From Cyanophora paradoxa CCMP329 (taxonomy: Eukaryota; Plantae; Glaucophyta), in NCBI GenBank assembly GCA_004431415.1, contig QPMI01000658.1:1-64000 (forward strand): a stretch of 64,000 nucleotides of DNA, given 5' to 3'. This document shows, one piece after another, positions 6,878-31,928 of the stretch (its first letter is position 1; every line of letters starts with the position of its first letter). The translations under genes and the position numbers were made by a program. Under the pieces are notes generated by a model, which was given only the letters and a program-made list of their open reading frames with translations, had not been told where the DNA came from and ran no database searches.

Positions 6878-8228
6878 GTGGCGCGCTCGGGGCGGCCGGC
6901 GAGCGCGTCGCTCGCCGTCGCGGCCCTCGTCGCCTCCGCCGTCGGCGCGCCCCGCCCCGCCCCGCCTCCCGCCCCCTTCCCCGCGCCCCGCCTCCCTAGG
7001 CCTAGAGCTTTGGACGTGCGCCCCCGCCGCCGGGCCGGGTCCTCCACCCTTCCCTTACGCTTTCCTCGCCCCGCCCCGCCCCCGCGCGCCTCCCATCCGC
7101 CCCGCAACTACCCTCCCCATATGCATCCGGATCCCTCATCCCTCTTCCCCTCCCCATACGCATCGATATCCCCCCCACACCCCCCCCCCTACACCCCCAC
7201 CCCCGCGGCGCCTTAAGTTCTCCTCGCACGCGAGTCCCCCCCCCCTCCCCCCTCCCCCCCCCCCCCCCCTTCCCCTCCACCTCCGCGCGCGCCTCACGCC
7301 CGCGCGGCAGTGCACAACACGCTGCTGCTGGGGACGACGCTCGCCGTCGCCGCCGCCCGCTCCCTCCCCTGGGACTTCTCCCCGGAGGCCCTGAGGTGAT
7401 CATGAGGATAAATCAGGATCTAACTGTGCACATGTAAGGATCGAAGGATCTTATAATCTAATTAACATCTAGGTATAAACAACATTAACTAAGGATCTAA
7501 GCATGTAATGTAATGTAAGCTAGAGGCGCGACAGCCGCCCCGGCCCCCGCCCTCCGTCTCCGCTGCTGCTACTGCAGCTGCTCGCGATCGCCGCCGTTCC
7601 CGCTCTCGCCTTCTCTAGTGAGATAGGCCCTGGGCCTCGAGCTCCCCACGGGCTTCGCTTTTAATGTTCGGGCCCGGCCCGGCCGGGGCAGGTGGCGGCG
7701 CTGCTGGCGGCGCAGGCGGCGTTCGTCCTCCTCGCCCGCCGCCGCTCCCTCTCCCCGCCCCGGTACGGTGCGCCCCCTATCATCCAAACATCCAAGCATC
7801 TAAGCGTCTAAGGTTTCTAATCTTTGGATATAAGAATCTCTCTCCCCTCTGTCGCCCTCCCCTTCGATCCCTCTTAAGCTTGGATCCCTTGGATCGAAGC
7901 CTAAGCGTCTAAGCGTCGAAGCTTCTAAGGAGCTAAGGCCTGACTCTAGACTCTAGGAACGGATCGCTGACTCTGACGGTGCACGCGCCGCGGCGGGGCG
8001 GCATCTAAGCGCCGAAGCGTCTAAGGATCTCTCATCTGCATATATGGATCTAAGGATCTCTCCCCGCCCGGGGGCACTCCCGTTCGTTCACTCTTGGTCC
8101 CTTCGGTCGCCGACTCTGTCGGTGCACGCGGAGCGGCGCGCAGGGCGCTGGCGTGCGGGGCGCTGCTGCCGGCCTCGCTGCTCCTCGCCGCCGCCCTCCG
8201 CGCCGCCGGCTGGGGCTCCCCCTACTAG
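6878..8228 (+). pseudogene. Second copy of the last four exons of the NCL-like exchanger (partial duplicate or alternative 3' exon set)
   Basis: Exons at about 6878-6944, 7311-7387, 7692-7762 and 8144-8228 are near-identical to 2663-2729, 3472-3548, 3793-3863 and 4162-4246, with intact splice sites and stop codon. Only a MITE-disrupted remnant of the preceding exon exists (about 6316-6575). Confidence 0.7.
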
Positions 8229-8919
8229 CGAGAGCTAGGCTGTGCGGCTCCCATCTTTTGCGAATAACCTCCCCGCGAGCCCCTGATCATGAGTATACAT
8301 AGCGCCTCCCCCGCCCTCCCTCTCCCCCTCCCCCCCCCCCCCCCCCCTTTCCCCAGCTAGCTCACTCATCAGCTGGAGCTCATCGTTTCTCCCCCGCCGC
8401 CCCTCCCCCTCTCCCCCCGTCCCCCTGGGGCTTCCCCTGCTAGCGTCCCCCGAGCCCTGTACATACGAGAGCGATCCGAGGTTTGCATCTCAGTCATACG
8501 TACGGGCTAGCATACATACATACGTCAGTCAGGAGCTCATCGTTCGCTGGTTTTGGTCATGCTTCGAATATCTAAGTGTTATGAATACGCCGTGACGGTC
8601 CGCGAAATTGCGAGAATCTACGAGCAAGAGCTAGACTGCGGACTAGCTATATAGCGACCGTCGGACACGAGAGGGAGCGAGACTACCGTATATCTAGAGC
8701 GGCCGGCACTTCGGATTCGACCTCAAATATATATTCAATTGCAAGGCTTCATGATCAAATACTAATTGCCGGGGTTTGGAGCTAAAGCTCACACAAAGGC
8801 ACAGTGATGTATAATTAGAAACGCTTCGAAGTCCTATCATGCTTGTGTACTTGGAAGTCTTTTTAGAAAACAGAGACCGTCGGACTGGATAGCGGCCTTG
8901 TAGGCCGTCGAGTTGCGAC

Positions 8920-10683: not shown

Positions 10684-11656
10684 GATGACTCAGTTAAGTC
10701 AAATGGCCCGCGCTGTGTTACGCCCGAGCTGTGCTATATACGCAGAGCAAACTGTGTATGTATAGCTGTGGTCAGAGTTTGTCAAGGTGTATACGTACAC
10801 CACTGAAAAAGCGCGCACACGTGCACGTCACGGCGTAGACGTCCGACTGGCACAAGGTCGTAGCTGGCTTTGCTAGATGCGCATGCAGCACTGCAGCTTG
10901 CTTAAGCTTCCAAGCCTGGCAAGCTTGCTTGGCAAGCGCCGCTAACGTTAGCTGTACTACTGCTGCTGTATACGTAGCCGACTACCGTACAGTACTAGCT
11001 GTAGTAGCTAACACGCCTGCGGAGAAGCCGGACGTGCTACGTTATACGTACGGGACGGTACGGCCTGAAATGGTTCGGCCACTGAGTCACGGTATACTAT
11101 GATAGAATAGGCCTAGGAGACCCGGGTCACCCGGCCCGAGTCAGTGTGACTCATCATGATCACTGAGTCAGTGACTCACACAGTGAGTGACCCGACTCGA
11201 GCTCGGCCCGGCGGCCGGCGCGGGCCGGGGAGTCCGAGTCTGTCCGACCGTCGGACGCCGGACCGAGGGTCCGACGACGAGTCGACGACTCGCGAGTCGC
11301 GACGGCCCGGTACCGCTGTTACCCAGTACTTGAATTATAAGTTTATAACTTAGTAACTCAATCTATCAGTACAGTATAATACAGTATATAAGCCAGGGCC
11401 GCGGGCTTCATGTTGGGCCCTAAGCTTGAGCGATCGTGCGAGATGAATTGAATGTCGCGATCGCGATCGCAAAACCGAATCGATATATAATCGAATATTC
11501 GTTGTGCATATAGAAATCCAAAAATGAATTAATGCATATTGGGGGTACAATAGATGGCCGGGCGGCTGCGGCGCAGAGAACAAATGTTCACAGTATTGGA
11601 GTAACATTCTGTTCTTTTTTAACGTTTTCACGTAAATAAAATATTCACAGTATTAG

Positions 11657-11912
11657 TGTCGCGTGCCGCGATTCCCTCGGATTAGGCTAGCCGGCAGTCT
11701 ATGCGTAGCCGCTAGCCCTAGTCTAGTGCTATCGAGCAGCTAGCTCTAGCACTCTCTGTATTCTGACTTAGCGCCGGGCGCGACTCCGTTTGGGGGTACG
11801 CGATCCCTGGACGGGTACACTTGTGAATAGACCACTTGTGCTCCCAGCTACAGCCCCAGCCCGTGCGTGACCGCACGGACGCTGCACCGGGTGGGAATCC
11901 TCTCATCCGACA
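11657..11912 (+). repeat. 5' LTR (256 bp)
   Basis: Exact direct repeat of 30087-30342; TG...CA ends with a 5-bp terminal inverted repeat. Confidence 0.97.
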
Positions 11913-12457
11913 GGCGCCATCTGCTCACGGAGCCAGAACCCCGATCATCAGCGACCCGTCATCAGCAACCGACCCAGCTCGGCGACCGCGGCTCAGCCGG
12001 CGCGCAGGTAGACCTCAGCAGAGGTCGTGGGTCGCTTCTCGCGCCCCGCCTGCGCCGCTCCGGGCTGATCCGCAGTTGGCGACCGAACATTCTGGAAAGA
12101 ACCAGAACTTAGTCCTGCGGATCCAGGAACGCGCGCGAATACCGAGGGATCCCCGTCCCGATCGGATCGTCGCCGTTTCCTGAGCGAGCTGCGTGCGAGC
12201 CCGTGGGATCATTCCTGATCGGTCGCTAGTCACTCGCCGCGACGCCAGCCTTCTCCGGCTGTTGCGATCGTGCTGGACAAGACGAAGAGCGATCGGATCG
12301 ACGGCTGAGGCGTGCGCGCCCGAGCTGTCTCCGGAATCGCCGCAGCCGAGCTAGTGAGCTTGCTCGCCGCTGCTGTGGACCACGACGGCCTCGGATCTCG
12401 AGCGAGGCACATTCTCTCACGGAAAAGCGTGGCATTACGTCGCCGCTTGACCTGAGA

Positions 12458-14034
12458 ATGTCCTCGGGGACCGGAGCCTCCGCGGAGTTCGTCGTCCGGG
12501 CCGCGCACGCGCGTGGCGCCGCCGACATGGACTCTATGAGCGGATCAAATGTTTTGCAATGGATCCAGAGCCTGCCGAAGCTGCCGCCGGGCAGCGATCA
12601 GCGCACGGTTCAGGACCACCTCCGCCAGTTCGAGAGCTGCGCGAGCATGAGCAAGGACTTGCTCAGTGTCTCGCCGACTGCACACATTGAAGTGCAGAAG
12701 CGAACTGGGTGGGCTCTTCTCGGCACGCTAGATCACGGGCACCCCGTGCGCCAGAACATCTCGCTGTTCCAGAGCGCCGAGCAGATCGACACTCGCGAGC
12801 TCGAGAAGCTGAAGGCGTACCGGGCCGAGCGTGCGCGCACGAGCACGGCGGACCCGCGAGACGTCGCGATCCTCGAGACGCTCGACGAGAAGATCGCGCA
12901 AGCCGAGGAGGGCTTGCAGCGGACCGCCCTCACGGTCACGTACACCGCGATCAGGCGCCGTCTCGAAGATGACGCCGAGATGCGGAACCCTGACCGGTAC
13001 AAGGCGCTCCTCGACCTGCCGCACGTGGGCGAGGCGCCGGAGGCGTTCTATCGCCGCGTCCTCGACTTGAGCATCATCCCGGAGTGCCGCGAGGCGCACG
13101 AGACACCGCTTATGGCACTCATGCGCCACGCGGGCCAGATGCTCAAGCGCCGCACTCGCAATCAGTGCCGCGACTTCGAAGACTCCGAGATTTCGGACAC
13201 CGATCGCCGGCACATGATGACGAACTTCTCCACGGCTCGGAAGATCTATGACGAGCTGTCGCAGAAGATCGCGGACCGCGAGATCACGGGACCCTCTGCG
13301 GTCATCGACCTGGTAACCAAGCGCACCAATGAACTGGGCGCCTGGGACGTCGATATCTCCAAAGTCCCCGGCTCGGCCCTAGTGCTGGGCTCGCGCGGGA
13401 CGCCGCTGCAGGCGCCCACGGCTGCCTCGCGCACGCCGCAGAGCGCGCCGCCGATCACGCACACGCCAGCTGTCCCCGTCGTCCCCTCGCGCTCGAACGC
13501 GGGCGCCGGCGCGGGCACGCGCATCATGCTCGCGACGACGGTGTCGGAAGCCGAGATCGCAGAGCTTGAGGCAAACGCGTACGGGTGGGACGCGGACGAC
13601 GCCGAGGATCAGAACGCCGAGGTCATCTCGTTCCTGCAGCTCATTGCTCGGGACGAGCCCCTCGTCGTAGTCCGCGCGCTCTACCCGTCGGCGTCCGCAC
13701 CGCCGCCCCGCCTTGACGACCCGGTCTATCAGCAGAAGATCAAAGACTTCCTGAAGGCCCGGGGTCTCCCCGAGAAGCCCCGGCGGCCGTGCCACTGCGG
13801 CGAGTCGCACTACTCGTTTGAGTGCCGGACCAACCCGCGGCCTCTGCCCGAGTGGTCGGCAATCAACCCGGCCAAGCGCCGCGGGCCAACGGGCGCAGGC
13901 ACCGGTGACCCGAAGCGCCGGTTCTACCCGCGCCGCAGGGTGGGAACGGCCGCTCGAGCCCCCCGCCCCAGCAAGCTGCAGGGCCCCGGGCGTGCTACAA
14001 CTGCGGCAAAACCGGCCACCTGGCCGCGTCCTGC
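12458..14034 (+). CDS. gag: Gag region: putative capsid plus two Zn knuckles
   Basis: First ATG ORF after the 5' UTR; atypical knuckle CHCGESHYSFEC at 13790-13825 and canonical CX2CX4HX4C CYNCGKTGHLAASC at 13993-14034 (in the -1 frame). The capsid assignment is positional inference. Confidence 0.75.
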
Positions 14035-17000
14035 CCGGCCCAGGCGCAGACGCTCGAGGCCGCGGTCCGCCGCGCGCTTGCAGAACACGCCGCCGCCGCT
14101 GCAGCCCCGCCCGTGCCGCCCGCGACGCCGGCGCCCTGGGCTGACCCCAACGCCTTCACGATCGCGCGCGCCATGCTCGAGCAGGCTGCCCGAAGCGGCG
14201 CCGCCGGCCCGTCCGCGACTGCACTGCTTCCCGCGCCGACCGGCGGCCACGGGTCGGGGCCCACGGCGGCCCCGGCGCCCGCCGAGCTTGGCAAGGAAAA
14301 GCACGTGTACCGTGTGCGCATCGTGCGCAGCGACGAGGCGTTGGTCGACGATACCTTCCGAGCCTTCACCGCAGCGGCCGCGGCGCACGCCGCCGCGCTG
14401 CAGGACCCCCGGACGGCCCCGCTCTCAACGCGGTCGCCGCAGCCGCCACCGCTTTCGCGATCGCAGTAGTGCAGCTGTCCGGGGAAAGCCGCCCAGACCT
14501 GTGCCCCACGGGAGCCGAGAGGCCGGCCCCCTGCGAGGCGCAGGACCTGTTGCCGACCCGCCCGGAGTCGGGCCTGGACGAGGGGGAGAAGAAGGTCGCG
14601 TTCGACGCAGTGGACGCCGCCCTCGAGGAAATCGCACTCCTCTTGGCGGCCGCCCCGGACCCAACGGAGGTCGAGGGCGCTGACGCAGCAGCGAAGGGTC
14701 CCGCGCCGACGCCCGTGCCGACTTCTTTCCCCGCCGAGCTCGCCGCCGGCATCGTGGACGCCGCCCTTGAGGAGGTCGCACTCCTCTTGGCGGCCGCCCC
14801 GGACCCAACGGAGGTCGAGGGCGCTGACGCAGAAGCGAAGGGTCCCGAGCCCGCGACGGAGCTCGCTCCCACCAAGTCGGTCCCGAGACCGCCGCCGCCG
14901 AGGCTCCGGCGGACCCCGCCGCCGGCGTGGGCTGCTGCCTGGGGTACTCCTCGGGGCCGAGACGGTAGCGAGCCTCGAGGTGACCGACGACGGCGCCTCC
15001 CTCGCCGACGAGGACGCGACCGTAGCGTCTAAGGAGACCCTGCGCCTCAACCGCGCTCGCCTCCTCAGCGCTAGCCCCGGCCTAGACCTCACTCACTTCG
15101 GAGCCGTTGAGTTAGAGCCGGTGAAGGGCCGCGAGCACGAGCTGGGGCCCGTTCCTCTCTGGAACGTGGACGCGCACAAGCTGAAGGGCGCCGCGTCGGT
15201 CCCGCTCGACCGCGCGGCGTTCCTGTACCCAGCGCCGTGCGAGACTCACTGCGGCTGCACTGTGAGCGAGGGGCTGATCGAGGTCCGGGACGAGCAGTGG
15301 TATGCCACTGCGTTCCGCTGCCCGGCCCGCACCCGCCAGACGCTCTCCTTCTTGCTTGCGGCGTTCTCTCAGCCGCTCGCCACCGAGAGCACGTACCTCG
15401 GCTCGCGGACCCTCCCCACTGCGTTCCTGCAGATGCTGGGGCATGACCCGCTGTCCCAGGACACGCTGGCTCACGCCTGGCCGACGCACTATTATGAAAT
15501 CATGAGCCTCACGCACCAGGCCTCTCGCGTCGCCGCGAAGTGGGCCGGGGCCACGCGTGGCCGCACGCCGAGGGCCTCACGCCCGAGGGTCGCCCCGCAG
15601 TCGAGCCCGACGCCCACAAGCTTACGAAGCTTGGGGACGAGTGCGTCGCTACCGCCGGCTGGCTGGAGCCATACCGCCGCCACTGGAGCATTGGCCAGCA
15701 CTCGCCCGTGGCGGCCTCTCTCGAGCCGCACGAGATGACAGTGTCGGGCCGCCGCCAGCTAATCGAGCTGAGCGAGCTGTTGCCGGCACAGGACCGCCTC
15801 CGCCTTGCGTGCGCCTCGACTGTTGCGGGCTATTTCCTGCACCGCGTCGACTACGGTGCCCCGGGCACCGCCGGCGCCGTCGAGAAGATCCTCGGCCGCT
15901 TCTTTAAGTTCGCCGAGCCGCTCATGGTGGACGCGCGGGTCGACGCCTATGGCTTCGCCCTGCTGGCCCTCGAGCACGCGATCCAGTGGAAGACCGTGGC
16001 TTGCATCGGCGGCCGCGCCGGTCCCCACGACGCCCACAAGAGCGCCGTTGCCCTGGCCGACGGGAACCCTCTTGTCCCCTCGGACTCGGAGTTCACGGAA
16101 GCCGTTCACTCGCTTGCCGTCCTGGCTGCCTCCGTTGAGGTTCCGATCCCGGGGCGGGCACGTCTCCGCTCGGATCGGGACGCCGAGGGATGGCTGCGGG
16201 CAGCGCTCGCGGAGCGTCTGACTGCGTACCGCGACGGCCGTGCCCCCGCCTTCCCGGTCGTGAGCGAGGGCGAGTCCCGCACGGTTGAACGCGTTCCGGT
16301 GGAGCCCCGCGTCGCCGCCGCCCGCGTTCTGCACCTCCGGGACCTGCACTTGTGCGACACCTGGCTGCACTGGCCGCGCCTGCACGGGGCAGAGCCTGGC
16401 ACGTGGAGGGTCGGCCGCGTGCGCCCGATCACGCGCACCACGCAGTTGCCCCTGCACGGCACGACGCGAGGCGGGCAGCTGCCCACGATCGTGCCTGAGG
16501 AGCTCTACGTGCTGAGCCAGCTCGGCCCGCGCCCGCCGCTCACCGCCCTGTGCGATGCAGCCTGGGCCCGCACGGTTCCCGGATCCGCCGGGGCCGCGGA
16601 GCTGCTCCGGTACATCGAGGGGGCCAAGGCGGGCGACCGGGCCCACCTCGTCATTCTATTCCGTAGGCTGCTGAAGAAGCGGGCCGGTTTCAATGACGAG
16701 GCTGTCAAGGACATGATCGCGCTCGTGGAGAAGTGGCGCACGGATGCAGGCAGCCGCACCCCCACTCCTCTCCACGACCTGCCCACCACGCCGAAGCCGG
16801 CGTCGGACACGACGGGCGCCTACACGGCGAAGGCCGTCAGCGCGACGATCAAGGAGGCTAAGGCCTGCCTGCCGCCGCGCCCGCCTGTGAAGGCGCTCTC
16901 GCCGAGGGACCCGCCAGCGCCGGCGCGGCCGGCGCCCGTTCCTGTCCCGCCGCCTGCACCGACGGCGAAGCTCGTGACCTTGCACGCCGCGGCAACATGG

Positions 17001-20000
17001 CCGCCGCTTGCGAGCCCGATGGCGCCGCGGCCCACCGCCGCTCCGACGCCGCCCGCCACTGAGCCCGCGCCTGTCGAGCCTCGCCTGAGCGAGCCGCTAC
17101 TCGACGTCGCGCGCGCGACCGCGCCGGCTCCCGGCAGGCCGCCCGTCGCGGCGAGCGTGGCCGCGGGGACGGGGTCGTGCGCGTCAGCACCCGTGGGCGC
17201 GGCTCGCAGGGGCCACGAACCCGCAGCGCCCGCCGTGGGCAGGCTGAGGGGGAAGACGCCGAGATGGGCGAGCGGGGCGACGGCGATGAGGCGCCCGAGG
17301 AAGCGCCGCCGCCGCCGCCGCCGTCGGCTATCGATGAGAACCTGAGCCAGCGGGCCCTGTACGAGGCTATGGGCGTGATGAGCGGCGTCCTCGCAGTGCC
17401 GGGGTGCCCGCCTCGGCTCTGTGAGGGAAACAGATCACCGAGTGGCCCATGACGGCCCGGTCTGATCTCGCCCACCGCTGGAGCATCCCCTTCGACGCAC
17501 TGAAGGGCACGTTCGAGGACCTGCGGGTCCCGCACCTCAAGGCGTTTCTCGCCAGCGAGAGGAGCACGCCAATCCAGAACCGCCTGGATGGGCCGCCCGT
17601 GCCGCACGAGGAGCCGCCGGAGGGCCGCGTCGCGCTCAGAGCCGATCGCACCGTTCGCCTCGCGCGGCTCAACGCGGCCGCGTTCGAGCTCTTCATGATC
17701 GCGCTGGGGCTCCGTGGCCCCGTCACGCCCCACTCCCACGATCTCCCGTTCCACCTGCATGAGTGGACGGAGCAGCAGTTGGAGCACTTCCTGACTCTGC
17801 GTTGGACGATCCCTGCCACGCGCCTGCCGCGGTGGACGCACGGGGGCCGCTTCAACCCGAGCGCGGCCGTCATCCCGCCGCAGTGGGCCCAGTACCTCTT
17901 GCGTGCTCACACCATGTTCCGCGCCGAGGCGGTTGGGACCACCGTTCCCTCCGCGGAACGCGCCGGCCTGGAGTTCCCGTACGGGGTTCGCTGGCTGCGC
18001 CGCCACCTGCAGCTAGGGACGCGCGCGCAGGAGGAAGCCGCCGAGAGCGACCCGCACAGGGGCTTGGCCCTGACCGCCCAGCGCGCGGCCTTCCAGGAGA
18101 AGGTCTTGCATGCCCTCGAGCGTCACGCTGCACGGCAGTCGTTCACGTTCGACGATGCGCTTGTGGGCACCTACATCGCCGATGAGCCTGAGCCCCGCCT
18201 CGAGCCGCTCGACATTGACCATGTCGAGAGCGAAGAGGAAGAGGGCGAGAAGGAAGAGGCGCCGGCTGCCATCCCTGCGGCGGCGCACAGGCCGTTCGAG
18301 CCGCACAAGGACTGGCAGCCGCGGCCGCTGTTCTCGTTGGCGGACCCGACGTACGCCAACGATCACAAGCTCTTGCGCGAGTACATGGACCGGAAACACG
18401 CGTTTTTCCGGCCCCTGGAATGCTATGAGCCAGGGTTCACTGAATGGGCAACGCTGCCCGCGATCAGCTACCCCTTGCGCTGGCAGCACGCCGGCGACGT
18501 TGACGAGTACAACGTCGACGTGCTCACGCTGCAGGACCAGCACATGGGCGAGCTGTGCTCAACTATGCTCAAGCGCGTCGGCCCCGCCGCGCGCGGCATA
18601 GTGAACTGGTTCTCGCTCGTAGGCCCGCCTCAGCGGCCGTTCGACGAGGATCCGGAGCTCTTCGACCTGCAGGGGCTTGCATTCCCGCACGCCGCCTGCG
18701 GCGTCAGCTTGGATATCGTGCAGTACCTCGCGGTCGGGACCCGTACCGCACAGTCTGCCGTCCCGACGTACACGGGCGCCTGGGATCTCACGCACGAGGG
18801 CACAGCCCACGCACCCGTGTGTTCGACCCTGGGCCAGGTCTCGCGGGTGCTGTATACCGCCTTCTTCCACGAAGGCGGCGGCGCGCGGAACGCCCGCCGC
18901 CGTACATGCCGCACCCCGAGCGCCCCACCCTGCACACCTCAGTCTTGGGCGGTAACATCGCCGACCCGAACGAGGAGGACGCCAGGACGCCGTTCGCGAC
19001 CCGCTTCGCGCGCGACGTCGCCGTGCTGGCCCTGCTGCGCCCGCTCGCCGACAAGCGCGTCGAGAACGTTGAGGGTCGCCTGCAGACGCGGCGCATCTAC
19101 GCGCCCCGCCTCGTGGCAGGCACGGCCACGCCCGCGCCGAACGCTGCCTGCGACAAGGACGTCGCAGGGGGCGCGCCGCACCAGCGCGAGAACAAGAAGC
19201 TGTGGCTCGCAGTGACGGTCGCCCAGCTTGCGAGCCAGCCCAAGAAGAGCCACGCGAACCCGCGGCTCGTCACCGCGTTCGGTTACGAGCTGCCGCCTTT
19301 CCCGAACTCACCTCCGGGGACGTGCCCTTGGGCGCCGATCCCGGCGGAAGAGGAAATCCTCGCGACGGCCATCGGTTTTACGCTGGCCTGGCACGCGCGC
19401 TTCTTCCAGCGTCACGCGCCGGGCAAGCACCTCCGCAGCCAGCACTGGGCTGATGACTTTCTGTCGGCTGCGGCCATGGACGTCGAGTCGGAACGCCCGG
19501 CTGACTACGTCCCCGAGATCGCTCGGGCGGTCGCCGATCACATGGATGACTTCAACAAGGTGTTGAACTCGTTCCGCTGCGTGGTGCCGGACGGTCTGAT
19601 GGTGTTCATTCACGAGGCCTTCCTGACTAAGCCGACGGCCAAGCCGGACCGCGGGTCCGACGTCTTGCCTCAGGGCAAGAAGGTCTTCGACGCGGACGCG
19701 AGGCCGACGTACCCGGACGGTCATCCCACGCTTGCGTGGAAGTTTGGCCCGAACAATGCGGTCGTGCCGGACCACGAGGGTCGTGCGGCGATCTGTGGGC
19801 GGATCCTGCTCGCGATGCTGCAGGGCTTCCAGTATCCCCGCATCCCGCTGCTCGCGCAGCGGGTGGACAACTGTGCGCCCCTGAACGCCGCCATGCCCCA
19901 GAACGTGGCCGAGGTCTTCAGGGCCCTCTTGCGCACTATGACGAGGGATGAGTGCGCCGACTCGGATGCCCGCGCGCTGGCGGACGGCATCCGCGCGTAC

Positions 20001-23000
20001 CTCACAAACATGCCGCACGGTCTCGGGTACCAGCGTCTTGAGCTCGGCTCGCCCCCGATGGCCGGCGCCGAGGACGCGTGGCCCGCCGGCGATGACCTTG
20101 GCGCCGGGGGCAAGAGTGGGATACAGCGCCACCTTGAGGCCGCCCGCGCCGCCGAGGAGCTGGAGAACTGTCCCGGGAACTTCCCGCTGGGGCTCATCTT
20201 TACCGATGAGGCTATACCCCTGCGGCCTCAGTTCGAGACGATGCTCCGTTCGCTCTACGCCGATCTGAATGTCGCGATCCGCCTCGCGCGCCCGATCGAC
20301 TGGGAGACGGACGACCCCGTGCTCCCCGACTGGGACGTTGAGGCTCTGCGCCCGGCGCTGATGTGGGACGCGGTCCAGAACAAGGGCGCCGCGCCCTCGG
20401 CCCGGCGCAGCCTGACTGCGACGGCGGCTGTCGATAAGGAGGCCGAAAGCCTTCTGGTTCGCACGCCGTACCAGCCGATCTACGAAGGAGCGGTCCGCGC
20501 GACGTGGGCGGGCGTGCGGTTCCAGCCGCCCTCAACCATCGTCGGCGGGCTCGCGGACGACCCCGCCGAGGCGGCGCCATCCGCCACCCCGTCGGCGCCC
20601 GCGCCGGCGCAGGCCGCTGCGCAGACCGCCGCGCCGCCGACGGCGCCGCAGCAGGCGCGGCCCCGGCGCAACGCGGGCCAGGCCGTTGGCCGAGGCGGCC
20701 GCGGGCAGGGTCACCAGCGGGGCGGCCGGCACCGCGGTCGCGACGGCCGAGGCCACCGTGACCGTGGCGGCGACCGCGGCGGTGGCCAGGCGCAACCCGC
20801 ACAACCCGCTGTCGACCCGAACGACCCGTTCGGGCTGGATGCGTTCCTCGCGCGGCAGCAGGGGTATGACCCCAAGACCATGCGCGTAACCGTCTCGGAC
20901 GGGAAGGTGAAGGTCGAGCGGATCGCCGAGAGCGCTCCGCCAGACCAAGCCCCGCCGGCTGAGACTCCCTCCCGGACCTTGATGCCGCCGCCCAGCTCGA
21001 GCCGCCAGGCCGAGGCAAGCTCGAGCCGCAGGACGACACGGCCAGTCGCGCGTCGCAGGCCCGCCGGACCCCTGAGCGGGCCTCGTCTCAGCGCCGCTCG
21101 CGCACACCCGAGCCGCGCCGAGCCCCGTCCAGTCGCCGCTCTCGCACCCAGACAGGCGCGAGACGCGGGGCCCCTCCACGCGCCGCGAGCGCTCCCCGGA
21201 GCCCCACCGGCAATCCCGGGCGCCGCCGCCGTCCCGCCGTTCGTTGGAACGCCGCGATCGCGAGGGCTCCCGACGCCCTTCGCCGGACCGCCGGGACCGC
21301 GAGGCCTCCCGCCGCCGCTCCCCGGACCGCCGTGATCGCTCGCCGCCGCGCCGCGACCGCAGCCCGCCGAGCCGACGGTCCACGGCTCGCGACACTCGCG
21401 GCAGGCGGAGCCCTCGCCGAGGCTCGCGGGAACGCCGCCGGAGCCGAACACCGTCCCGCTCTAGCTCCCGCTCGCGCTCGCGCGATCGGAGCCCGAGCCG
21501 GAGCCCCCGCCATGACGATAAGCGGCGCAAAAGCTCGAAGAAGGGCTCGCGCGACCGCGCCTCGCCGCGAGACCGCCGCAGCCCTCGCAGCAGCCAGTCC
21601 TCTCGCCGCCCGCCGGACCCGCCGCGCGGCGCCGTAGACGCTGCGTACAAGCGGCACGAGAACGACGCCCGCCTGCGAGGCTGCCCGCCCACATTGCGCG
21701 AGCTCTTCGACATGGTCTGGAAGGCGCAGTACGCTGAGATGCCAGACTCGCTCTCGGCGTCCGCGCGAGCTGAGCAGGCCACCGCGCTGGTCCTGATCAA
21801 GCTCCAGAACCAGATGGACGCTCAGTCCGCGTCGTCCTCGGCCCGCGCCGCCGCGCCACCATCGGGTGGGCAGCCGCCGACGGGCGGACGCAACGAGCGC
21901 CAGCAGCCCTTTCTAGAGGGGCCTGAGGGGCAGAGCGAGGCCGGTCCGCAGTCGGCGGCGCCGTCCAAGCCTGCGGAGGGTCGCGCCTCCATCTCTCAGG
22001 CCCAGGAGCGGTCATCGCGTGCGAGCCAGGCCGAGCCGCCGCGCGCAGACCAGTCGACGCCGGAGCAGCCGCGCGCCTCAGTGGCCGCGCCGCGCGCCTC
22101 CGCCGCCACGACTTTCAACCCCAGGCTGACGTCCCAGCAGGGGCCTCCTGCAGTTTGTGCGCGAGTGCTCGAGCTGCCGCGACGTGAAGATCCGGGGCCA
22201 AGGGGTCACGGAATTGGGGCTTTGGCTTCAAACAGTCGAGCGCCAGATCCGCACCGCCGCTAGCCACGCCGAGACGCGCGCCAAGCCCGGCGGCGCTCAG
22301 AAGGTCTCAGACGAAGCCTTCGCCCAGGCAAAGCAGGCCGCTCGGCGGGCCCTGGAAGACGTCTGCCGCGCCCTCCGGGCCGGCATCGATATGCAGATCA
22401 GCCTCTCCGCTGGGAGACGGGCATGATGATCTCGCTCCTCCCAGACGGGCCCCGTGCCGATCTCGAGGCTCTGCGGGCCACGCTCGATCGCACCAAAGAC
22501 TGGCGAGCCTTGCTTGAGCGCGAGCGCCAGCACGAGGCTCGCGTGGCAATGCAGGCCGCGGCAAAAGCCAACCCAAAGCCCTTCTTCGCGGTATACACCG
22601 TCGCAGAAGCGTCGTCACCCCGCGGGCACGAGGCCCGCGCGCCCTGTGACCTTCCCGCCCACTTGCATACGCCGGCGTCGGTCCGGGCCGCTGTGCCGGT
22701 GCCGGCGGACGAGAAGTACATCTCGATCCGCCGCGTCCAGACGGTCGTCCACGAGCCGCCCGCTCAAACAGTCGCGCCGCCGGCGCCAGCCGCGCCGCCC
22801 GCCCGGCCCCACCAAAGAGCCGCGAGCCTGCGCCGGCCTGGGCCCGCCGCCTGCTGCACAAGCTCGGGCCGCGCTCGACCGTGCTGGTCTTCAACTGGCT
22901 GTCGAACCCCGCGCAAATGCTGCAGGTCGATCCAAAGACCCTGGAGCCCGCCTTACGCGCGGTGCATCAGGCGATCATGGACCGCTACGGCATCTCGATG

Positions 23001-26000
23001 CGCAAAACGGGCTACAAGGCCCCGCCACGGCCGACTCGCGCGTGGTTCTCGGGTTCAGCGCCGACAGCGGCGTTCGCCCCGCAGAACGCGCTCGAGGCCG
23101 CCGCGATCATTTACCCCGAGGGCCTGACCTCCGACGAGGAAGCTCTCATGCCCGCGGGCCACGCCCTGGGCTCCAAAAACCGCCCGTCCCTCGCCGTGCC
23201 CCGCCCAGCAGAGGAGACGCCGCTGGGAACGCGCGCCGGCTATGACCCGCCCAGCGACGAGTTGCTCTACGCCAACCGCCACGGCCCGGGCCCGCGCAAG
23301 CGGACCAAGCCCTCGCCGTTGGCCGACCAGGCAGAGCAGCGCCGAGTCGCCGAGCGAGCCGCGGCTCGCCAGTCCCGGCCCCCATCCCCAACCGCAAGCG
23401 CAACGGACCTGTCGGGTCCACCCGCGCCGCCGGAACCAGAATTCCACGTCCGCCGCGCCCGACCTAGCTTCCCGCGCGACCGGGCCCTGGAATTCTTCCG
23501 GCCAAAGACACTGCACATTCACGGCAGCATTGCTATGCGCCTGCCGAACGGCCGCTCCGGCGCTGAACGGCCCGCTCGCATTGTTGTCGACACGGGCGCC
23601 CAGGGAACTGTAGTTCCCCAGGAAGTCCTCGACCGCCTGCCGCCCGACGAAGTCAATTACGTCGAGGGCCACACGATAGTCCGCGGTTTCATGGACCGGG
23701 ACAAAATTCGTTGTCGCCGCGCCGACGTAGTCTTCGTTCTGGGCTCGCTCCGCTTCTGCCGCCGCGTCTTCGTCGTCCCGCGCGGCGCCATGGGCGTTGA
23801 GCCGGACATTCTGCTCGGCCTGGACGCGATCCAGGCCGTCCACGGCCAGATCGACACGACGCTGTCCGGGTGGTGCCTCCGGGCCCGTGACCACCTGCAC
23901 CGCGAAGTCGTCGTCCCTTTTCGGCTCCGGACCAGCTTGGGATCCTGGTCCGAGTCCTGGGACCAGTAAAGCTCCCCGTCGGAGAGGCCCTCGTCCCATG
24001 CACGCTCAATGGGCAGGGCCCGGCAACGCGTGAGTTGCCGCACCTCTACGTCGAGCCGTCGCCGGAGTCCCCGCAAGCCTTGGGCGTACTCTGCCCTTAC
24101 CAGCTGCATAATCACCCGGGAGACAAAATGTTTCACGTGCGGTTGTGCAATCCTGGCCGGCAGCCGGTAACCCTGCCGCTAGGATCGGTAGTAGCGGTCG
24201 CTTCGGCGGTCGCCCTACCGCCTGGTGATTTTGAGTACGAACCTGAGCAAATGCCTTGTAGTGCGAGTGCATTGACAGACCTCTTGATTCGCCGGCTGCG
24301 AATCGTGCCTGCCAAACGCCGCACTGGACTCCGCCACTTTAATAGAAAAGCACGCATGCTTGGCGCGGCATATGAGCCCGCCAAAGACGTTGAGAAAATA
24401 ATCTCCACCCTACGTTCTGTCGTAGATGAGGCGGAAAAGCAGCGCGCTCTGTCTAGCGCAGCGCCTGCTGAGCCCGCCGACCCACCCCGCGCACCGCCCT
24501 ACGACGTCGACGATATAGTCGTCACGTTTGGCGAGCTGCCCTTCGACACAGCCGACCGGCCGTTGCAGGACCTTGATGCTATGAGCATCATTAGCCTCGA
24601 CGACGATGCTATGAGCACGTCGTCACGAAGCGCGTCCCCAACGCCGGCCCCGATCACAGGCCCCTCGGTCGACGAGTTCGTCGCCGCAGTCGAGGCAGTG
24701 TCCGTCCCCAGAGACGCCACCCTGCGCTCGACCTTCCCCGGTCTCTCCGAAAAAGCGGAGCGCGACTTGCTCGATGCAGTCCGCGCCATGCGCGGCGACG
24801 TTACGGTCCGCAAGGCCGCACCGGTCGCCGACGCCGAGGCCCCACCCAGAGTGTGGTCACAGCCTCGCTTTCGGCCCGGCCCGATGCCCCACCCCTACGA
24901 CTGCAGCACCCGACGCGAAGCCCGCTGAGGCACCGCGGCCGGTGCCTAATGCAGAGGAGGAGTGGCAAGAGCTGCTGAAGAAGATTCCTGAGCTCGGCTC
25001 TCACCCGTCAATCACGACGGCGCAGAAAGCCGAACTTCACGCGCTCCTGCGGCGCTACAAGGATGTCTTCGCAGACAAGGTCGAGGCCAAAGAGGGCACC
25101 AGCAACCTGCTCTATTACGAGCACGTGATCAAACTCACGACTCGCCTTCCGGTGTTCACGCCTCCGCGGCGTATGAACCCGCACGCCGAGGAACACGCCC
25201 GCAAGGAAATTCAGAAACTCCTTGAGCTTGGGCTGATCGAGCCCTCCCAAGCGGCATATGGCTCGCCGGTAGTGCTGGCCCCCAAAAAGGACGGCACTTG
25301 GCGTTTCTGTGTCGACTATCGGAGGCTGAATCAGATCACCGAGCGGGACGTGTTTCCCCTACCCCGCATAGACGACCAGCTCGAGCGCCTCCGCGGCTCG
25401 ATGGTCTTCTCGACTGCTGACGCGACTGCCGGCTTCTGGCAGCTGCCTCTGCACCCCGGCTCCCGAGCCTACACTGCATTTGTGGTCCCCTGGGGTCACT
25501 TTCAGTGGAAGGTTACGCCGTTTGGGGTCACGAACGGGCCCGCGGCATTCTCCCGCGCGATCACTGCGATCCTGGGCCCCTTGCTGACCACCTGCGTCGT
25601 CGCGTACATCGACGATATCACGGTCTTCTCACCGTCCATCGATCAGCACCTTCTAGACTTGAAGGCGCTCTTCGAGACGATCTCTAAGGCGAACCTGCGC
25701 CTGAAGCCGTCGAAGTGCCGCTTCTGCGTGCCTGAAATCGACCTTCTCGGCCACCGCATCTCCGCCGAAGGGATCCGCCAGGACCCTGCGAAGACCAAGG
25801 TGATCACGGACTGGCAGACGCCGAAGAACGCGGACGAGCTCCGCTCGTTCCTCGGCCTCGCCGGCTACTACCGCCGCTTTGTCGAGAACTTCTCCAAAGT
25901 GGTGCACGCCATGCAGCGCCTTCTATTGAAGGACGCCGTCTGGAGTTGGCCAGAGGACGGCCCCGCCGACCGCGCCTTTAAGGAGCTGAAAGAACTCCTG

Positions 26001-29000
26001 GGCCGCGATATTATATTGCGGTTCCCGGACTTCTCGAAGCCCTTCATTCTCCAGACGGACGCCAGCACCTACGCTATCGGCGCAATTCTGAGCCAGGCCG
26101 ACGACAAAGGCGTCGAGCGGCCGCTCGCGTTCATCAGCCGCACGCTGCTGCCGGCCGAGATGAACTACTCCGCTACGGAGCTGGAGTGCCTCGCAGTAGT
26201 CTGGGCCATTAAGTATTGGCGCCACTATCTGCTGGGCGGCCCCCAGTTCCTGGTGCGGACCGACCACCACGCCCTCCAGTGGCTGAAGACGCTGGACCCG
26301 ACGACGGGCCGCCTCGGTCGCTGGTCCCTGCTCTTGCAGGCCTACGACTTTGAGATCGTCTACCGCCCTGGCAAGCAGAACGGGGGTCCCGACGCGTGCT
26401 CGCGTCTCCCTAAGGACCACCCCGTCTGGCAGCCAGGCGGTGCAGACGGTTCCTCGTCCAAGCCCGCGGCCTACAAGGGCGCCGAAGGCTTCGGCATCCC
26501 GCAACATGCTGTAGGGGCTGAGCCTGAGGATCCCGACGTCCCGCTGGGCATCTTTAGGATGCAGCTGGGCCCGACCGAGCGGGCCCTGCGCCAGCTCGCC
26601 AACTCCGCCGGCTTCCGCGCGGAAGCCCCAGCCGAGGGTGGCCGAGCCGCTAGACGCCGAGCGCCCCGGGCGGCGCCTGCGAGCGCCCCCTCTTCCCGCC
26701 GGGCCGCTCCTCTTATGCAGAGGAGGAGTCGCGGCCCCCTGTGCCAGCCAGTGCTCCTGAGGCCGAGCCCGACGCCGGCGCCCCTGAAGCGCCCGCGCCC
26801 GAGCCTGAGGGTGAGGCTGGCGGTGCTGCGGAAACCGATTCCGACGCCGAGCCCCCGCCGCCAGAGCGCGCGCCGCGACGCCTGCCCCGCGAGCTCGCCA
26901 AGCTTGCTGCGTCGGCTGGGTTCGCTGAGGCCAAGGCCTCCGCCTCGGCTACTGACGCCGCCACGCGCAAGCGAGCGCGGGCCGCCCCAGAGCGCTTCGC
27001 GCCTCCCGCGCCAGAGTCGGTCTCGCCGCCCCGAAACGACGAGAGCCGGGCCCGGCGCCCGCTGTCGAGGAGCGCGAGGCTCCCTCGGACGCGGAGATGC
27101 CCGACGCCCCTGAGGGCGACCTGGGCGCCCCGGCCGCGCTGCTAGAGGACGCTCACGCAGAGGCCGAGGCCTCGGGCGAGATCGATGACGAGTCGCTGCC
27201 GGAAGGGCCTGTCCCCTCCGACGCCTGCGACGCTGACGGCTTCCCCCTCGCTCTTGCGGAGCGAGTCCCGAAGCGCTCGGAAACCGGGCCCCGTCGGTGG
27301 GGCGCCAAGGGATTTGCCGAGCCGCGGCCCCTGCATCCCGACGCGCTCTTCCCTCGCGGCCCCGCCTTGAGGCGGCAGCCTCGAGATGAGTACAACACGC
27401 GCCACTGGCGCTCCCCGGTCGACCCCTCGGATCGGCCGGTGCCGATTCATATTGAGTGGGAGCCGGAGGACCCTGAGGGCGAGCCGCCTCCCGGGCCTCC
27501 GCGCCGACGCTCGCTCTCCCGGAGACTGCTCGCCACCAGATCCGCGTTCGGCCGGTCCCCCCGGACCCCAAGCCAGCGCCGCGGGCTCGAGGTCGCCCCT
27601 CTGCCCGCGGGCAGGCTTCCGACGACGCCGCCCCGCTCGAGCCTGAGACGGTCGCCGCCGAGGCCGCTGCCCCGCAGCGGTGGGTAGAACTCGACCCTAG
27701 AGGCCGGGACGTTCGCCCGCCGTGCAAGCCGGTCTTCGTGGATACCGTCCTCGACGCGTGGGCCTGCGGACCCTCGCCAGCCGTCGATGGGGCGCTCCCC
27801 GACGCGCTGCGCCGTATGTTCCCGCCCGAGAAGCGCAAGCGTCTGCTCGCCGCTCAGAAGGAGGATTCCTTCTGCAAGAAGCTTCTCGCCTTCCACGCAG
27901 AGGGCGAGAATCCAACTGTCTGTACCCGCGGCTCGAGGCGCGACGCAGATCCCTGCTCGCCCAGCTGCGCTCACTGCCTGCGGGCCAAGGAGCGCTTTGC
28001 ACGCCTGGCCGGCGAGTTCAGCCTGGCCGACGACGGCGTCATCGAGCGCAACCCCTTGGTCCCTGCCGGCCGGTTCCTACCCGTCTTGCCGGACGCTTGG
28101 ATCGACAGGGTGCTCTACGCCTATCACGAGGGCTGGGCCCATCGAGGCGCGCCCGTGATAGCCCGTCGGATCGCCCTGCGGTTCTGGTGGCCTGGCATGT
28201 ACGCCTCCATCGCTCGCTTTGTGCGGTCGTGCCCGCACTGTCAGTTCGCGAAGGCCGCGAAGCCCCGCCGTACCGCCATTCAGGTGATACAGCCTTCGGG
28301 CAAGGGAGACCTGTGGCAGGTGGATATCTTCCACTTGGATATGCACGAAGACGGTTCGCGATACATCATCGCGTACGTCGACGCATACACCAAGTTCTGC
28401 TATATCTACCCGCTCTCCCGTATCTCCGGCGAGGCCTTGCTCGCCACCGCGATCGACTTCTATACGCACGAGGGCGTGCCCGCGCGCATCCTGACGGACC
28501 GCGGGTCCCAACTCGTTGGGGGCGCGTGGAACGCGTTCTTCAAGGAGAAGGGTACCCGGTTCGTGCACGCGGCCGCCTACCACCACGCCTCGAACGGCGG
28601 CGCCGAGCGCCTGGGCGGAGTCTACAAGACTCTCGCTTACGCCATGTGCCGTGAGCACAAGCGGCCGCTCTCTGACTGGCCTCTTTACAACGCCGATATC
28701 GTTCTCGCGTTGCGGACCACCGTGCACTCCGCCACCGGGTTCTCCCCGATGGTCTTGCACCGCGGTTCTGAAGTGCACCTGCCCTGCGAAGTGCGCTTCG
28801 GAGCCGGCGTCCGCTTCGTGAACCCCGACCACACGCACCCGGCTGATTACCTTCTCGCGATGACGCGAGCTGCCGCGAGCGCCGACGCTGCCTCGCGCGA
28901 GTACCGTCGGTTCTATCGGAACCGCATGGTTGCTCGCACCGGCAACCCGCCTCATCGTCGCCGCTTTGAGGTTGGCGACAAGGTATTGTGCTGGATGGGC

Positions 29001-29398
29001 GAACACAACAAAGGGCTGTACAATTCGTGGGTCGGGCCCTACACTGTGACTGGTGTTAACCCTGGCGGTTACACCTACACGGTCAAGGGGTCGGCTAAGC
29101 CCTACTCCGCCAAGGACGATGCCCGTACCCGTCCTCTGCGTGAGACTGTTGCCCACATCGACTGCATGCTTCCGTTCCGCACGCGTCTCTCCGAGTCTCA
29201 AGCCCGTCCCCGCGTTGGTCGGCCTCGGAAGACTGCTGTGAACGCCGACGAGCCGGCGATCGACCCCGCACTCGCGGACTCGCCCGCTCAAGAACAAAAT
29301 CCACCTCTCGCCCCTGACGTCGACGCCGAGGGCCCGAGCGGGCTGCCGAGGGCGACGAGGTTGAGATGGATGACGCGATTTTGGTCGACGACCTGTGA
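12458..29398 (+). CDS. Gag-cargo-Pol polyprotein of about 5,650 aa after joining about 21 single-base -1 shifts
   Basis: Successive ORF fragments join without stops when one base is restored at about 13929, 14408, 14883, 14930, 15548, 17237, 17426, 18894, 21026, 21148, 22120, 22142, 22412, 22803, 23920, 24888, 24893, 26695, 27059, 27491 and 29341. The joined frame ends ...EMDDAILVDDL* at TGA 29396-29398. Confidence 0.75.
14610..14851 (+). repeat. Internal coding duplication: about 98-bp unit, 144-bp period (VDAALEE[IV]ALLLAAAPDPTEVEGADA.AKGP x2)
   Basis: Near-identical copies start at 14610 and 14754. Confidence 0.9.
23510..23920 (+). CDS. Retropepsin-type aspartic protease domain
   Basis: IVVDTGA (DTG at 23589-23597) and DILLGLD motifs. 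Confidence 0.9.
25020..26410 (+). CDS. pol: Reverse transcriptase and RNase H (Ty3/Gypsy type)
   Basis: SPVVLAPKKDGTWRFCVDYRRLN, PLPRID, PFGVTNGPAAF, YIDD (25605-25616), FLGLAGYYRRF; RNase H motifs TDAS, ELECLAVVWA, TDH, DACSR. No frameshifts in this block. Confidence 0.98.
27830..29180 (+). CDS. Integrase: HHCC, DDE core and GPY/F motif; no chromodomain
   Basis: HEGWAH...CPHC; WQVDIF, LTDRGSQ, SNGGAERL; TGFSP; FEVGDKVL...WVGPYTV. Confidence 0.95.
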
Positions 29399-30074
29399 GA
29401 AGCTCGTCCCATTGCTGTTCCCTTTGCGATCGCTGTGCTTGCGCCGTGGGGCAGATTTCTTTGCCCGCTTTGCCTCAGCCCTGGCTTCCGAGGTGGGACG
29501 TGGGTTGGCTGGTGGCCAATCACGGGGCGCCATCTGGGCCTTTCGTTCCATTTTCTGGGATCTGGGCCCGTCGCTCGTGGAGAGTGGCTGGGTGTAGGCC
29601 TCCCGGGTGCCTGCGGGTCCGTGAGGGGCTCGAGGTTGCTGGCTGGGGGTGCACTCAGTCGTGCCCTATCCTTTCGTTGGGCCTGATGGGCGGCCCGGAT
29701 ACCTCCTCGCTGGTTTCTTCCCGAGGCGGTGAAACTTCCCATCCGTGCCACTCTCCTTCGGCTCTCGCCGTTGGAGCGAGTTTGGGCCAGCTTTTGGGGG
29801 TTTCGAGTTCTATGCTTTTCCATCTTTCGAGCTTGGCCTGGGTTGCCTAGGTACATGCACTATGCTGGTATCGGCTCCTATTTCGGTCGCGAGCTATGCT
29901 ACCTGGCATATCTGGTTGCTGACGACGGACATTCTACTTCGAGAGGAGTTCACTCGCCGCCGCCCTGTCGCTGCCGTGGTTGGTGCACACCCCGGCGGTG
30001 GGGTGGACGCCCCGTCGAGCATGCAGACTCGACGTTCGGCTTGGCGCGGTCCGGTGCGAGGACGCACCGTATGC

Positions 30075-30085
30075 AGAGTGAGGAG
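30075..30085 (+). other. Polypurine tract (plus-strand primer)
   Basis: AGAGTGAGGAG, one base upstream of the 3' LTR start at 30087. Confidence 0.75.
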
Positions 30086-30086
30086 T

Positions 30087-30342
30087 TGTCGCGTGCCGCG
30101 ATTCCCTCGGATTAGGCTAGCCGGCAGTCTATGCGTAGCCGCTAGCCCTAGTCTAGTGCTATCGAGCAGCTAGCTCTAGCACTCTCTGTATTCTGACTTA
30201 GCGCCGGGCGCGACTCCGTTTGGGGGTACGCGATCCCTGGACGGGTACACTTGTGAATAGACCACTTGTGCTCCCAGCTACAGCCCCAGCCCGTGCGTGA
30301 CCGCACGGACGCTGCACCGGGTGGGAATCCTCTCATCCGACA
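30087..30342 (+). repeat. 3' LTR (256 bp)
   Basis: Identical to 11657-11912 and followed by the ATTAG TSD. Confidence 0.97.
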
Positions 30343-31928
30343 ATTAGAGTATAACATTCTGTCTTTTTTTTATTAAGGGCTTGATTGTTCAAGCAAACGG
30401 GAGCTTTTTTTACTCATTCCACTATATATATCTGTTCATCGAGATATCTCCCCTCTTCCCGGAGAAGTTCCCCCCCTTGGAGCCCCTTCCCTCCTTCCCC
30501 CCTCCGGATCCCCCTCGAGCTCTCTCCGGATCTCGATCCGCTCCCGGCCCTCCGGATATCCGACGGCGTGAATTCGAAGGGCAAGGGCACCCTCTAGTAG
30601 ATGTTAGAATTTTCTAGATCTAGAGGGTGGCTGGCTACTAGGCTAGCGCTGGCCATATATATGCATGGGGGGGTGCGCATGCACGTGGGTGGCATGCAGG
30701 TCGCGATCGAGTCCGAGAACGCGTGCCGCAGTGCGCATGTGCGCACTGCGATATCGATACATAGGCCTAGCCGCGGCGCCGCGGCCGGAGTCCGAGATCT
30801 AGACCGCCGGATCGGACTCCGAGAACGCGTGCGCGCAGCGATATATAGGCCTAGGTTTGCTATCTAGCTATATATAGGGCTTTATATAGCTGGCGCTCGC
30901 GATCGCTGCAGGGTTGGGGCAAGTGGCCATATGCATGTATATGGGCGCGCGGCCGCGGGGGCCGCGGCCGGCGTCGGCGGGCTCGTGGGGATGCAGATCT
31001 CAAGGGGCTGCTCGCTGTGTTAACGTTATAATTAATATTATAATATAATTACGTATACCACCGACGTGGGCGCCGGGAGCCTGCAGCTGGCAGCTGCAGG
31101 GCCGGCGCCGGCCGGGGCCGGTCGGAGTGAATTCGAACCGCCGGCGCGGGCGCCGCGCGCGGGCAGCCTAGCTGTACTGCAGATGGCCATGCAGACGGCC
31201 ATGCGCCTGCCGCAGTGCAGAGCTACAACTTCGGAGGCCGCTCGAGGGCCGGCTATGACCAAGGCGGGTGAAATTTGGTGCCGCAGTGCTCCGGAGCTCC
31301 CCGCTCGGGGAGGCACCTAGGCGGCGTGCCGGGCCGGGGTGCTGATCGGCTCTCGAGGTCAGCCAATTGCAAGGGGGGGGCCTTGGGGAAGGAAGGGCCG
31401 GGGAGGGGCCGCGGGAGCCGGGCCGGGCCCGCCTGCACTGCGGCACCTTGGCCCCGCGCGCCGCGGCGGGGCCGGGTCGCGGGCGAAGGTCAGACGGTCG
31501 GCCCGACCGCGGCCCGCGCGCGATTGAGCAGCACCCACCCTTGGCCTAGGCCTCCGGATCCCTCGAGCTCGCCCCGGCCCGGGCCCGGGGCCCACCGAAC
31601 GCGACGCTCCGGTCCCGGCGCAAGAAATTAAATCATTCGAATTAATATTCTACATGCACATGTGATCGCGAGTACCGTGTACGTAGTGCACGCGTACGTG
31701 TACGCACAAGCTGTAATGATAATACGCAGCTTAGATATAAACCGGAGCCCGAGGACCTACTAGGCTATAGAGCTATATCTAGTTTTATCTACATCGGTAA
31801 ATCTAAGCGCCGCGGCGGCCGACGACGCGCTGAATCATGATCATGATCAGTGCATCTAACTTTAGTAAGCGGCATATTAGTTCACAATATTAGTTCCTTC
31901 ACGCTGACGTTCTGTTCGCGCTGACGGC

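Follow-up and report, generated by a model that had tools for sequence, protein, structure and literature searches.

An unrecognised in-frame block in the Gag-side precursor of a Ty3/gypsy-type retrotransposon of Cyanophora paradoxa

The element and its first reading frame

The window analysed here, the first 64,000 nucleotides of contig QPMI01000658.1 of the glaucophyte alga Cyanophora paradoxa CCMP329 (assembly GCA_004431415.1), contains a complete long terminal repeat (LTR) retrotransposon of the Ty3/gypsy type, 18,686 bp in length (11657-30342). Our subject is block 2, a segment of its first open reading frame (ORF1), which lies in frame between Gag and the protease (about 17324-20549; coordinates given as 'about' were derived by hand and may be off by a few bases). 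The element and the features of it described below are on the forward strand. Its 5′ LTR (11657-11912; 256 bp, TG...CA) is 100% identical to the 3′ LTR (30087-30342; 256 bp), and a 5-bp target-site duplication, ATTAG, is found at 11652-11656, before the 5′ LTR, and at 30343-30347, after the 3′ LTR. The interior (11913-30086) measures 18,174 bp, a purine-rich run lies just before the 3′ LTR, and the guanine plus cytosine (GC) content of the window across the element is 0.67-0.75. The identity of the two LTRs points to a recent insertion of the 18.7-kb element. The family is multi-copy, with near-identical gene models on 12 differently named contigs.

ORF1 extends from an ATG at 12458 to a TAA at 23967 when 14 gaps between 13926 and 22801 are taken as frame steps (an X was placed at each, with no letters filled in); read in this way it has 3,827 codons, with 0 stops in the coding phase as against 67 and 71 in the other phases. 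It encodes, in order, Gag, two knuckles, an Ala-rich stretch, an unrecognised block 1, a Pro-rich basic/acidic linker, block 2a, an acidic run, block 2b, an RGG box, an Arg/Ser-rich stretch, a helical segment, block 3 and the protease. Between the zinc knuckle and the protease there are ~3,100 residues (~9.4 kb of coding sequence) without any Pfam family; searched piece by piece against Pfam at E ≤ 1, this interval gave chance-level rows only.

Block 2 is formed by block 2a (17324-18225; ~300 residues), which follows the poly-Pro/acidic linker, a Glu-rich acidic run (about 18226-18258), and block 2b (18259-20549; ~760 residues), which has no stop. In the window as assembled the block appears as an ATG-started ORF (17449-19215) and an overlapping ORF in another frame (18555-21335), and GC at third codon positions shows that coding moves from one frame to the next at about 18870-18900. 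Over 1,201 codons the pieces of block 2 have 0 stops when read in the coding phase and 21 and 25 when read in the two others, and GC at codon positions 1, 2 and 3 is 0.70, 0.48-0.50 and 0.86-0.87, the pattern also found in the gag, RT and IN parts of the element. A stop-free coding phase so far beyond chance indicates that block 2 is real protein-coding sequence. An earlier note on this DNA, made from the letters alone, had described the region as complex and Trp/Pro/Phe-rich with one short acidic linker, and so it is (Trp 2.0-2.5%, Phe 4.0-4.6%, Pro 8.1-9.6%; the linker is the run at about 18226-18258); its borders, 17330 and 20545, are good limits of the complex sequence.

Neither block 2 nor block 1 (14953-16950; ~650 residues without a stop in the same ORF, right end approximate) matched a family at E ≤ 1 in Pfam, PADLOC, NCBIfam or PHROGs, and no 19-residue stretch of block 2 is sufficiently hydrophobic for a membrane helix (best Kyte-Doolittle mean, 1.30). 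These results bear out the earlier description of an unrecognised multi-domain region, here a coding part of the element, in which no helicase, nuclease, methyltransferase or envelope signature could be seen. A separate nested element, the possibility raised there, would have its own termini or target-site duplication; none flank block 2, where only three GC-rich matches (22-30 nt, 73-86% identical) were found, and both the frame and the codon-position composition are continuous through the two borders; block 2 is accordingly no nested element. When the 14 frame pieces were compared with one another by BLASTP no internal duplication came up, the pieces match nothing elsewhere in the window, and hhalign with the block 2b alignment (a poor test, the effective number of sequences being 1) gave probabilities of 0.25 against block 1 and 0.09 against block 2a.

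The Gag part opens ORF1 (12458-13924; 489 codons from the ATG without a stop), and P0025, a gene model of 3,082 residues, begins with identical residues. No Pfam gag or capsid family matched in ORF1, so that the capsid part is assigned by position. A non-canonical Cys/His knuckle, C-x-C-x3-H-x4-C (about 13790-13825), is unmatched by Pfam and lies ~55 codons upstream of a canonical CCHC knuckle of the nucleocapsid type (13987-14037; Pfam zf-CCHC, E = 4.1e-07); the latter corresponds to residues 21-37 of the piece 13927-14409 and is visible only in the frame that follows a one-base gap at 13926. In the Ala/Glu-rich part after the zinc knuckles a stretch of 144 nt (48 codons) is duplicated in tandem with 86% identity (14593-14862). 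Just downstream of block 2 lies the Arg-Gly-rich RGG box (about 20688-20786). It is followed by a long, low-complexity Arg/Ser-rich stretch (20997-21627), with disorder-type residues at 0.77-0.95 per 100, which is similar to the RS regions of splicing factors although it belongs to a retrotransposon precursor. A small helical segment follows (21619-21819). The last domain of ORF1 is an aspartic protease (23568-23825; D-T-G at about 23589-23597), which scored just under the cut-off with Pfam Asp_protease_2 (E = 6e-05) and also matched gag-asp_proteas (E = 4.5e-04) and the NCBIfam clan AA model (E = 0.0026).

Downstream, the pol frame encodes the reverse transcriptase (RT) and RNase H (25281-26345; Pfam RVT_1, E = 3.6e-35; RT_RNaseH, E = 2.9e-40) and the integrase (IN), with an H2C2 zinc finger and an rve core (28089-28583; Pfam). 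The pol pieces are open up to a stop at 29396-29398, past a gap at 29332. With the protease (PR), the Pfam domains stand in the order PR, RT, RNase H, IN, which is the Ty3/gypsy arrangement; no chromodomain was found in the Pfam scan of the element.

Homopolymer gaps and the frame of block 2

The coding signal given by GC at codon positions spans almost the whole interior of the element, with many frame changes, which is odd for an element whose LTRs are identical. Short-read evidence was obtained from the Logan contigs of three DNA runs, X1 (2012), X16 (2019) and X2 (2024), placed on the element. Over the whole element 27 one-base indels separate the contigs from the window; 12 were listed, all of them G or C insertions relative to the window, and 10 of these were put at full contig depth in all three runs. 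The insertions at 14881, 24844, 24891, 29332 and 29839 were present in X2 at 52-97% of depth, and that at 29795 accounted for part of the depth only (25-69%) in all three runs. In the interval 16350-23900, at a threshold of at least 97% likeness, nine insertions were placed, after positions 17129, 17424, 18892, 21030, 21146, 22118, 22139, 22411 and 22801; these are among the 15 indels outside the 12 listed for the whole element. Eight of the nine were at all depth in all three runs (X16 is without coverage of 17129), and the insertion at 22801 was at 84% of depth in X2 and 89% in X16. At all 21 listed places the insertion falls where a run of the same base begins, as is typical when homopolymers are under-called.

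Two of the gaps affect the reading of block 2 directly. At the head of the GGG in GGGAAAC (17424-17431) an extra G is present in all covering contigs of X1, X2 and X16, and in a C run at 18892-18893 an extra C is present in all contigs of the three runs. Gene models of other copies of the element agree: P0008, P0014 (1,131 residues) and P0026 (1,882 residues) read straight through 17424, and P0004, P0007, P0008, P0014 and P0026 read straight through 18892; farther downstream, P0020 and P0026 cross 22118, 22139 and 22411 in frame, and P0026 also crosses 22801. P0025 has the same wrong-frame text as the window at 17129, 18892, 21030 and 22118, its breaks being bridged by predicted introns. That the copies differ in these very runs fits an error of the consensus better than biology. 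Thus, the apparent frameshift at 17424 and the break at 18893/18894 are homopolymer gaps of this assembly. The two ORF pieces and the frame switch at 18893/18894 seen in the earlier note do exist in the window, yet they belong to one frame from which a C is missing. Contig joints around 17303-17323 were treated as repeat artefacts, as their anchors of ~21 letters lie in a GCC repeat.

The earlier note had placed the start of block 2 at the GGGAAAC heptamer and proposed that the block, entered there through a frameshift, may be made in smaller amounts than Gag; a programmed −1 frameshift would be needed for this. The heptamer, which lies at 17425-17431 and not at 17330, does have the right phase and falls exactly within the 25-nt overlap of the two frames in the window. 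However, every covering contig in the three DNA runs reads GGGG at this place, the gene models of other copies pass it without a change of frame, all 21 of the listed frame-breaking differences are homopolymer gaps of a like type, and the RNA fold downstream is no better than that of shuffled sequences (z = −0.7); we therefore give this explanation almost no weight. Since block 2 is in frame with Gag once the gaps are allowed for, every ribosome that makes Gag also translates block 2, in the same amount, and the lower stoichiometry has to be given up.

Just one frame change, by −1 and at the end of ORF1, could be genuine. The RT frame opens at 23891 and overlaps the ORF1 frame by 76 nt; an in-phase CCCTTTT heptamer (23915-23921) lies inside the overlap, ahead of the ORF1 stop (TAA, 23967-23969). 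P0026, a model from another contig with the correct reading at all six gap sites that could be assessed in it, also ends at 23967, which speaks for a genuine change of frame and, between protease and RT, a predicted −1 frameshift. On the other side, no read evidence was seen for 23901-24030, the CCC and TTTT are themselves homopolymers, and the RNA fold downstream is no better than shuffles (z = −1.0). A search with the spacer between protease and RT gave two matches, neither bridging 23915. We consider a real frame change more probable here than one more homopolymer gap. As 23915 lies downstream of the protease, a real shift would lower the amount of RT and IN, not that of block 2.

In the portion of PMC6704402 available, the long-read assembly of C. 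paradoxa is described as made from PacBio RSII reads with Quiver polishing and majority-rule short-read correction, 18.5% of the reads being placed ambiguously; repeats would be expected to keep homopolymer errors under such a procedure, as far as that account of it goes. Other repeats in the assembly probably share such errors, so that it would be wrong to take frame breaks in them for decay or recoding. More generally, in GC-rich long-read assemblies homopolymer gaps hit runs of the X XXY YYZ type and can mimic in-phase programmed frameshift sites.

Relatives and origin of block 2

A HMMER search with 18894-20546 as the query (block 2a, 17425-18891, lying outside it) against 1.84 billion representative proteins returned 15 proteins: 14 fragments, 86-100% identical, and P0024, a 46% identical paralogue. 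No match came from outside the element family and none was prokaryotic. Word-seeded searches with block 2 gave 10 and six matches, to 11 distinct proteins, each a member of the element family; these, and the two proteins matched by the protease-RT spacer, are all (13 of 13) EukProt gene models. The source species was checked for P0006, P0008, P0014, P0024 and the listed cluster members, P0015-P0023 being outside that check: the first four come from C. paradoxa, as do three of the four further cluster members (P0027 is unlabelled). No confirmed relative of block 2 was found among viral contigs, and none among metagenome contigs with either the block 2b/P0024 alignment or P0026 as the query; a comparison with PDB sequences at E ≤ 10 gave one chance row per query and no relative. 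As judged by sequence similarity, block 2b has no detectable relative beyond one species in the collections searched. The profile searches called for by the earlier note have in this way yielded no relative outside the family, and the structural side was uninformative: the mean predicted local distance difference test score (pLDDT) of AlphaFold2 models was 34.9 for P0008 alone and 30.2 for block 2b with a nine-row alignment (the query and eight near-identical or partial rows). The ESM Atlas gave no usable match for P0008.

P0024, of 251 residues, has two collinear matches to the element. The first covers the most conserved stretch, at the end of block 2b (20181-20396; 47% identity over 75 residues, E = 3e-13; HMMER E = 6.7e-07), and the second the helical segment that lies beyond the RS stretch (37% identity over 67 residues, E = 4e-09). 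The two are ~65 residues apart in P0024 versus ~410 in the element, and the RGG/RS stretch is absent from the gap in P0024. A diverged relative has thus retained the two segments, with the RGG/RS stretch as the variable part.

In a language-model feature search of the ESM Atlas, a cluster of pPIWI_RE, a prokaryotic Argonaute-like family, ranked first (score 0.89, with 172 of 256 features in common), and seven of the 10 best named matches fell in one family or clan, so that a distant relation of block 2b to the N-terminal X domain and MID domain of pPIWI_RE could be entertained. The recognition value, however, was 1107, while 91 of 100 proteins of known families reach 2300, and a score below 0.9 counts as a lead only. 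Moreover, Pfam at E ≤ 1 gave no match to PF13111, PF18157, PF13032 or PF02171, PADLOC gave nothing, and HMMER returned no prokaryotic protein. We regard this relation as very unlikely.

A fragment of a host or viral gene could also have been gained by an ancestor of the family, through transduction or recombination, and now lie in frame, with the function of its donor, if any. There is precedent in that the interval between Gag and protease carries acquired domains in other protist and animal LTR elements, as far as the available parts of the reports describe them (PMC5408684; bioRxiv 10.64898/2026.05.21.726589; PMC6431247), and P0024 could in principle be a host gene and not a fragment of another element. 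Yet the two stretches of the precursor matched by P0024 are separate and come in unchanged order, as one would sooner expect of a related element than of a donor gene. No donor emerged, HMMER giving only the 14 near-identical copies and P0024, and the viral and metagenome contigs giving nothing; the codon-position composition of block 2 equals that of the core genes of the element, and every copy seen has block 2, with a contig depth that is even. Capture of a gene thus seems improbable to us.

Contig depth in X1, at a threshold of at least 90% likeness, was 100-139 at 12134-12767, 24814-26081 and 27984-28617, versus 57 in the cargo region; with about twice the depth over these three intervals, related families seem to share gag, RT and IN parts but not the cargo. 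A 373-nt contig of run X21, which we guess to be RNA, covers 29356-29728, between the integrase and the 3′ LTR, without mismatch and at a depth of 3.4; elsewhere X21 gave low-complexity matches and an LTR-like contig with 13 mismatches, and nothing comparable over the coding part. Outside the element, a tandem array with a 51-nt unit occupies 40379-41290, within long ORFs of both strands (13 registers of a 300-nt reference, 64-100% alike). Several direct repeats, 84-150 nt long and 85-97% identical, lie ~3.8-4.2 kb apart and connect 2657-4281 with 6872-8236; they point to the duplication of a block of ~4 kb in which C runs abound.

Role of block 2 and comparison with known systems

We propose, with a probability of about 0.6, that block 2 is an in-frame segment of ORF1 that is likely to be released by the protease as one or two accessory proteins acting in the particle or on the RNA of the element. 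The protease of the element, at the end of the same precursor, would carry out this putative cleavage, and the acidic run at 18226-18258 would be a likely domain border; position and neighbours are what suggest the release. The released proteins may be accessory components of the particle or of a ribonucleoprotein, perhaps together with the RGG/RS tail, a role suggested by the place of block 2 in the Gag-side precursor, the RGG box and the Arg/Ser-rich tail. The −1 frameshift predicted beyond block 2, at CCCTTTT (23915), would reduce the dose of RT and IN.

Several observations weigh against this proposal. Compared with P0026, block 2a has changes in 36 of its 242 residues (15%) and the protease in 0 of 151, so that part of the block either evolves fast or is mosaic. 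The open frame itself is weak proof of function, as the protease lies downstream in the same ORF and any stop or shift in block 2 would be selected against, whatever block 2 does. Finally, no family in the four libraries, no PDB match and no confident model (pLDDT 30-35) supports a function.

Block 2 might be an expanded filler without a sequence-specific role, kept open only because the protease, and thereby pol, lies downstream. The searches gave no domain, no motif and no fold of any confidence; the low-complexity linkers and the 144-nt tandem duplication in ORF1 show that the precursor grows by expansion; and the divergence of block 2a is in line with a filler. Against this, the GC pattern across codon positions equals that of RT and IN in strength, and block 2 is complex and aromatic-rich, not of low complexity. 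Block 2b shares 97% identity with P0026, with 24 differences in 749 residues, and in a minor X16 contig (19109-19160) all four variants are synonymous third-position changes, a sample of four sites only. In addition, a stretch of 75 residues has stayed 47% identical to P0024, whereas the RGG/RS part that separates the two matches has not been kept. A mere filler therefore appears unlikely. We would likewise not expect that the ~3,100 residues between knuckle and protease are new folds, or proteins acquired from unknown viruses, kept under selection in a lineage of glaucophyte retroelements, possibly with an Argonaute-like or RNA-handling module beside the RGG/RS tail; the element would then be an algal counterpart of the planarian 'tinkerer' Burro. 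A young multi-copy element of 18.7 kb with an orphan cargo of ~3,100 residues offers, in little space, domains that may be new.

The element has the hallmarks of Ty3/gypsy (Metaviridae-type) elements: TG..CA LTRs, a 5-bp target-site duplication, a Gag with CCHC knuckle, the order PR-RT-RNase H-IN and an integrase with H2C2 finger and rve core. It differs from them in the ~9.4 kb of unrecognised coding sequence between knuckle and protease. In retroviruses of the Alpharetrovirus type the Gag frame ends with the protease, which is therefore produced in the same amounts as Gag, and pol is reached by a −1 shift; the likeness here is that the protease ends the Gag frame, with the pol shift predicted at 23915, and it is one of arrangement, no sequence relation being claimed.

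A literature search, with the repeat-landscape supplements of the genome paper outside its scope, returned no description of such an element in glaucophytes, and the available portions of PMC12344493 and PMC6704402 do not describe the family; the genome paper, in the part available, gives LTR elements as only 1.77% of the genome, with 'little or no expansion' of repeats. LTR elements with accessory domains are known, from the accessible sections of the respective reports, as bdelloid elements with ORF3s (PMC5408684), plant elements with additional ORFs (PMC7264820) and carriers of methyltransferases (bioRxiv 10.64898/2026.05.21.726589). Like these, as far as those sections go, the C. paradoxa element has coding capacity beyond gag and pol that is conserved across the copies of the family. 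Unlike block 2, which is on the Gag side, in frame and matchless, the additions described there are for the most part either ORFs of their own, located after pol and before the 3′ LTR (plants, bdelloids), or enzymes that can be recognised.

The closest architectural analogue is the giant polyprotein of planarian Burro/GYPSM1, which we compared by its description in the available part of PMC6431247. The hosts are far apart, a glaucophyte alga here and planarians there. About half of the extra residues of Burro carry AIR1, MATH, BIR, ankyrin, BCL2-like, midasin and env-like motifs (PMC6431247, same part), whereas none of the ~3,100 extra residues here matches any Pfam family. The interior of 18.2 kb is also under the 20-kb mark that PMC6431247, a review, uses for giant elements, while the interior of Burro reaches 25 kb according to the same part of it. 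In both systems, however, a very long ORF1 starts as a Gag with CCHC knuckles and continues in frame with thousands of residues, ~3,840 residues in all here and 4,873-5,140 in Burro, and both elements are multi-copy and recently active, going by the same description. Giant Gag-side polyproteins of LTR retrotransposons are thus known from planarians (PMC6431247, in the part available), and the C. paradoxa element bears on how large the precursor of a retroelement can grow.

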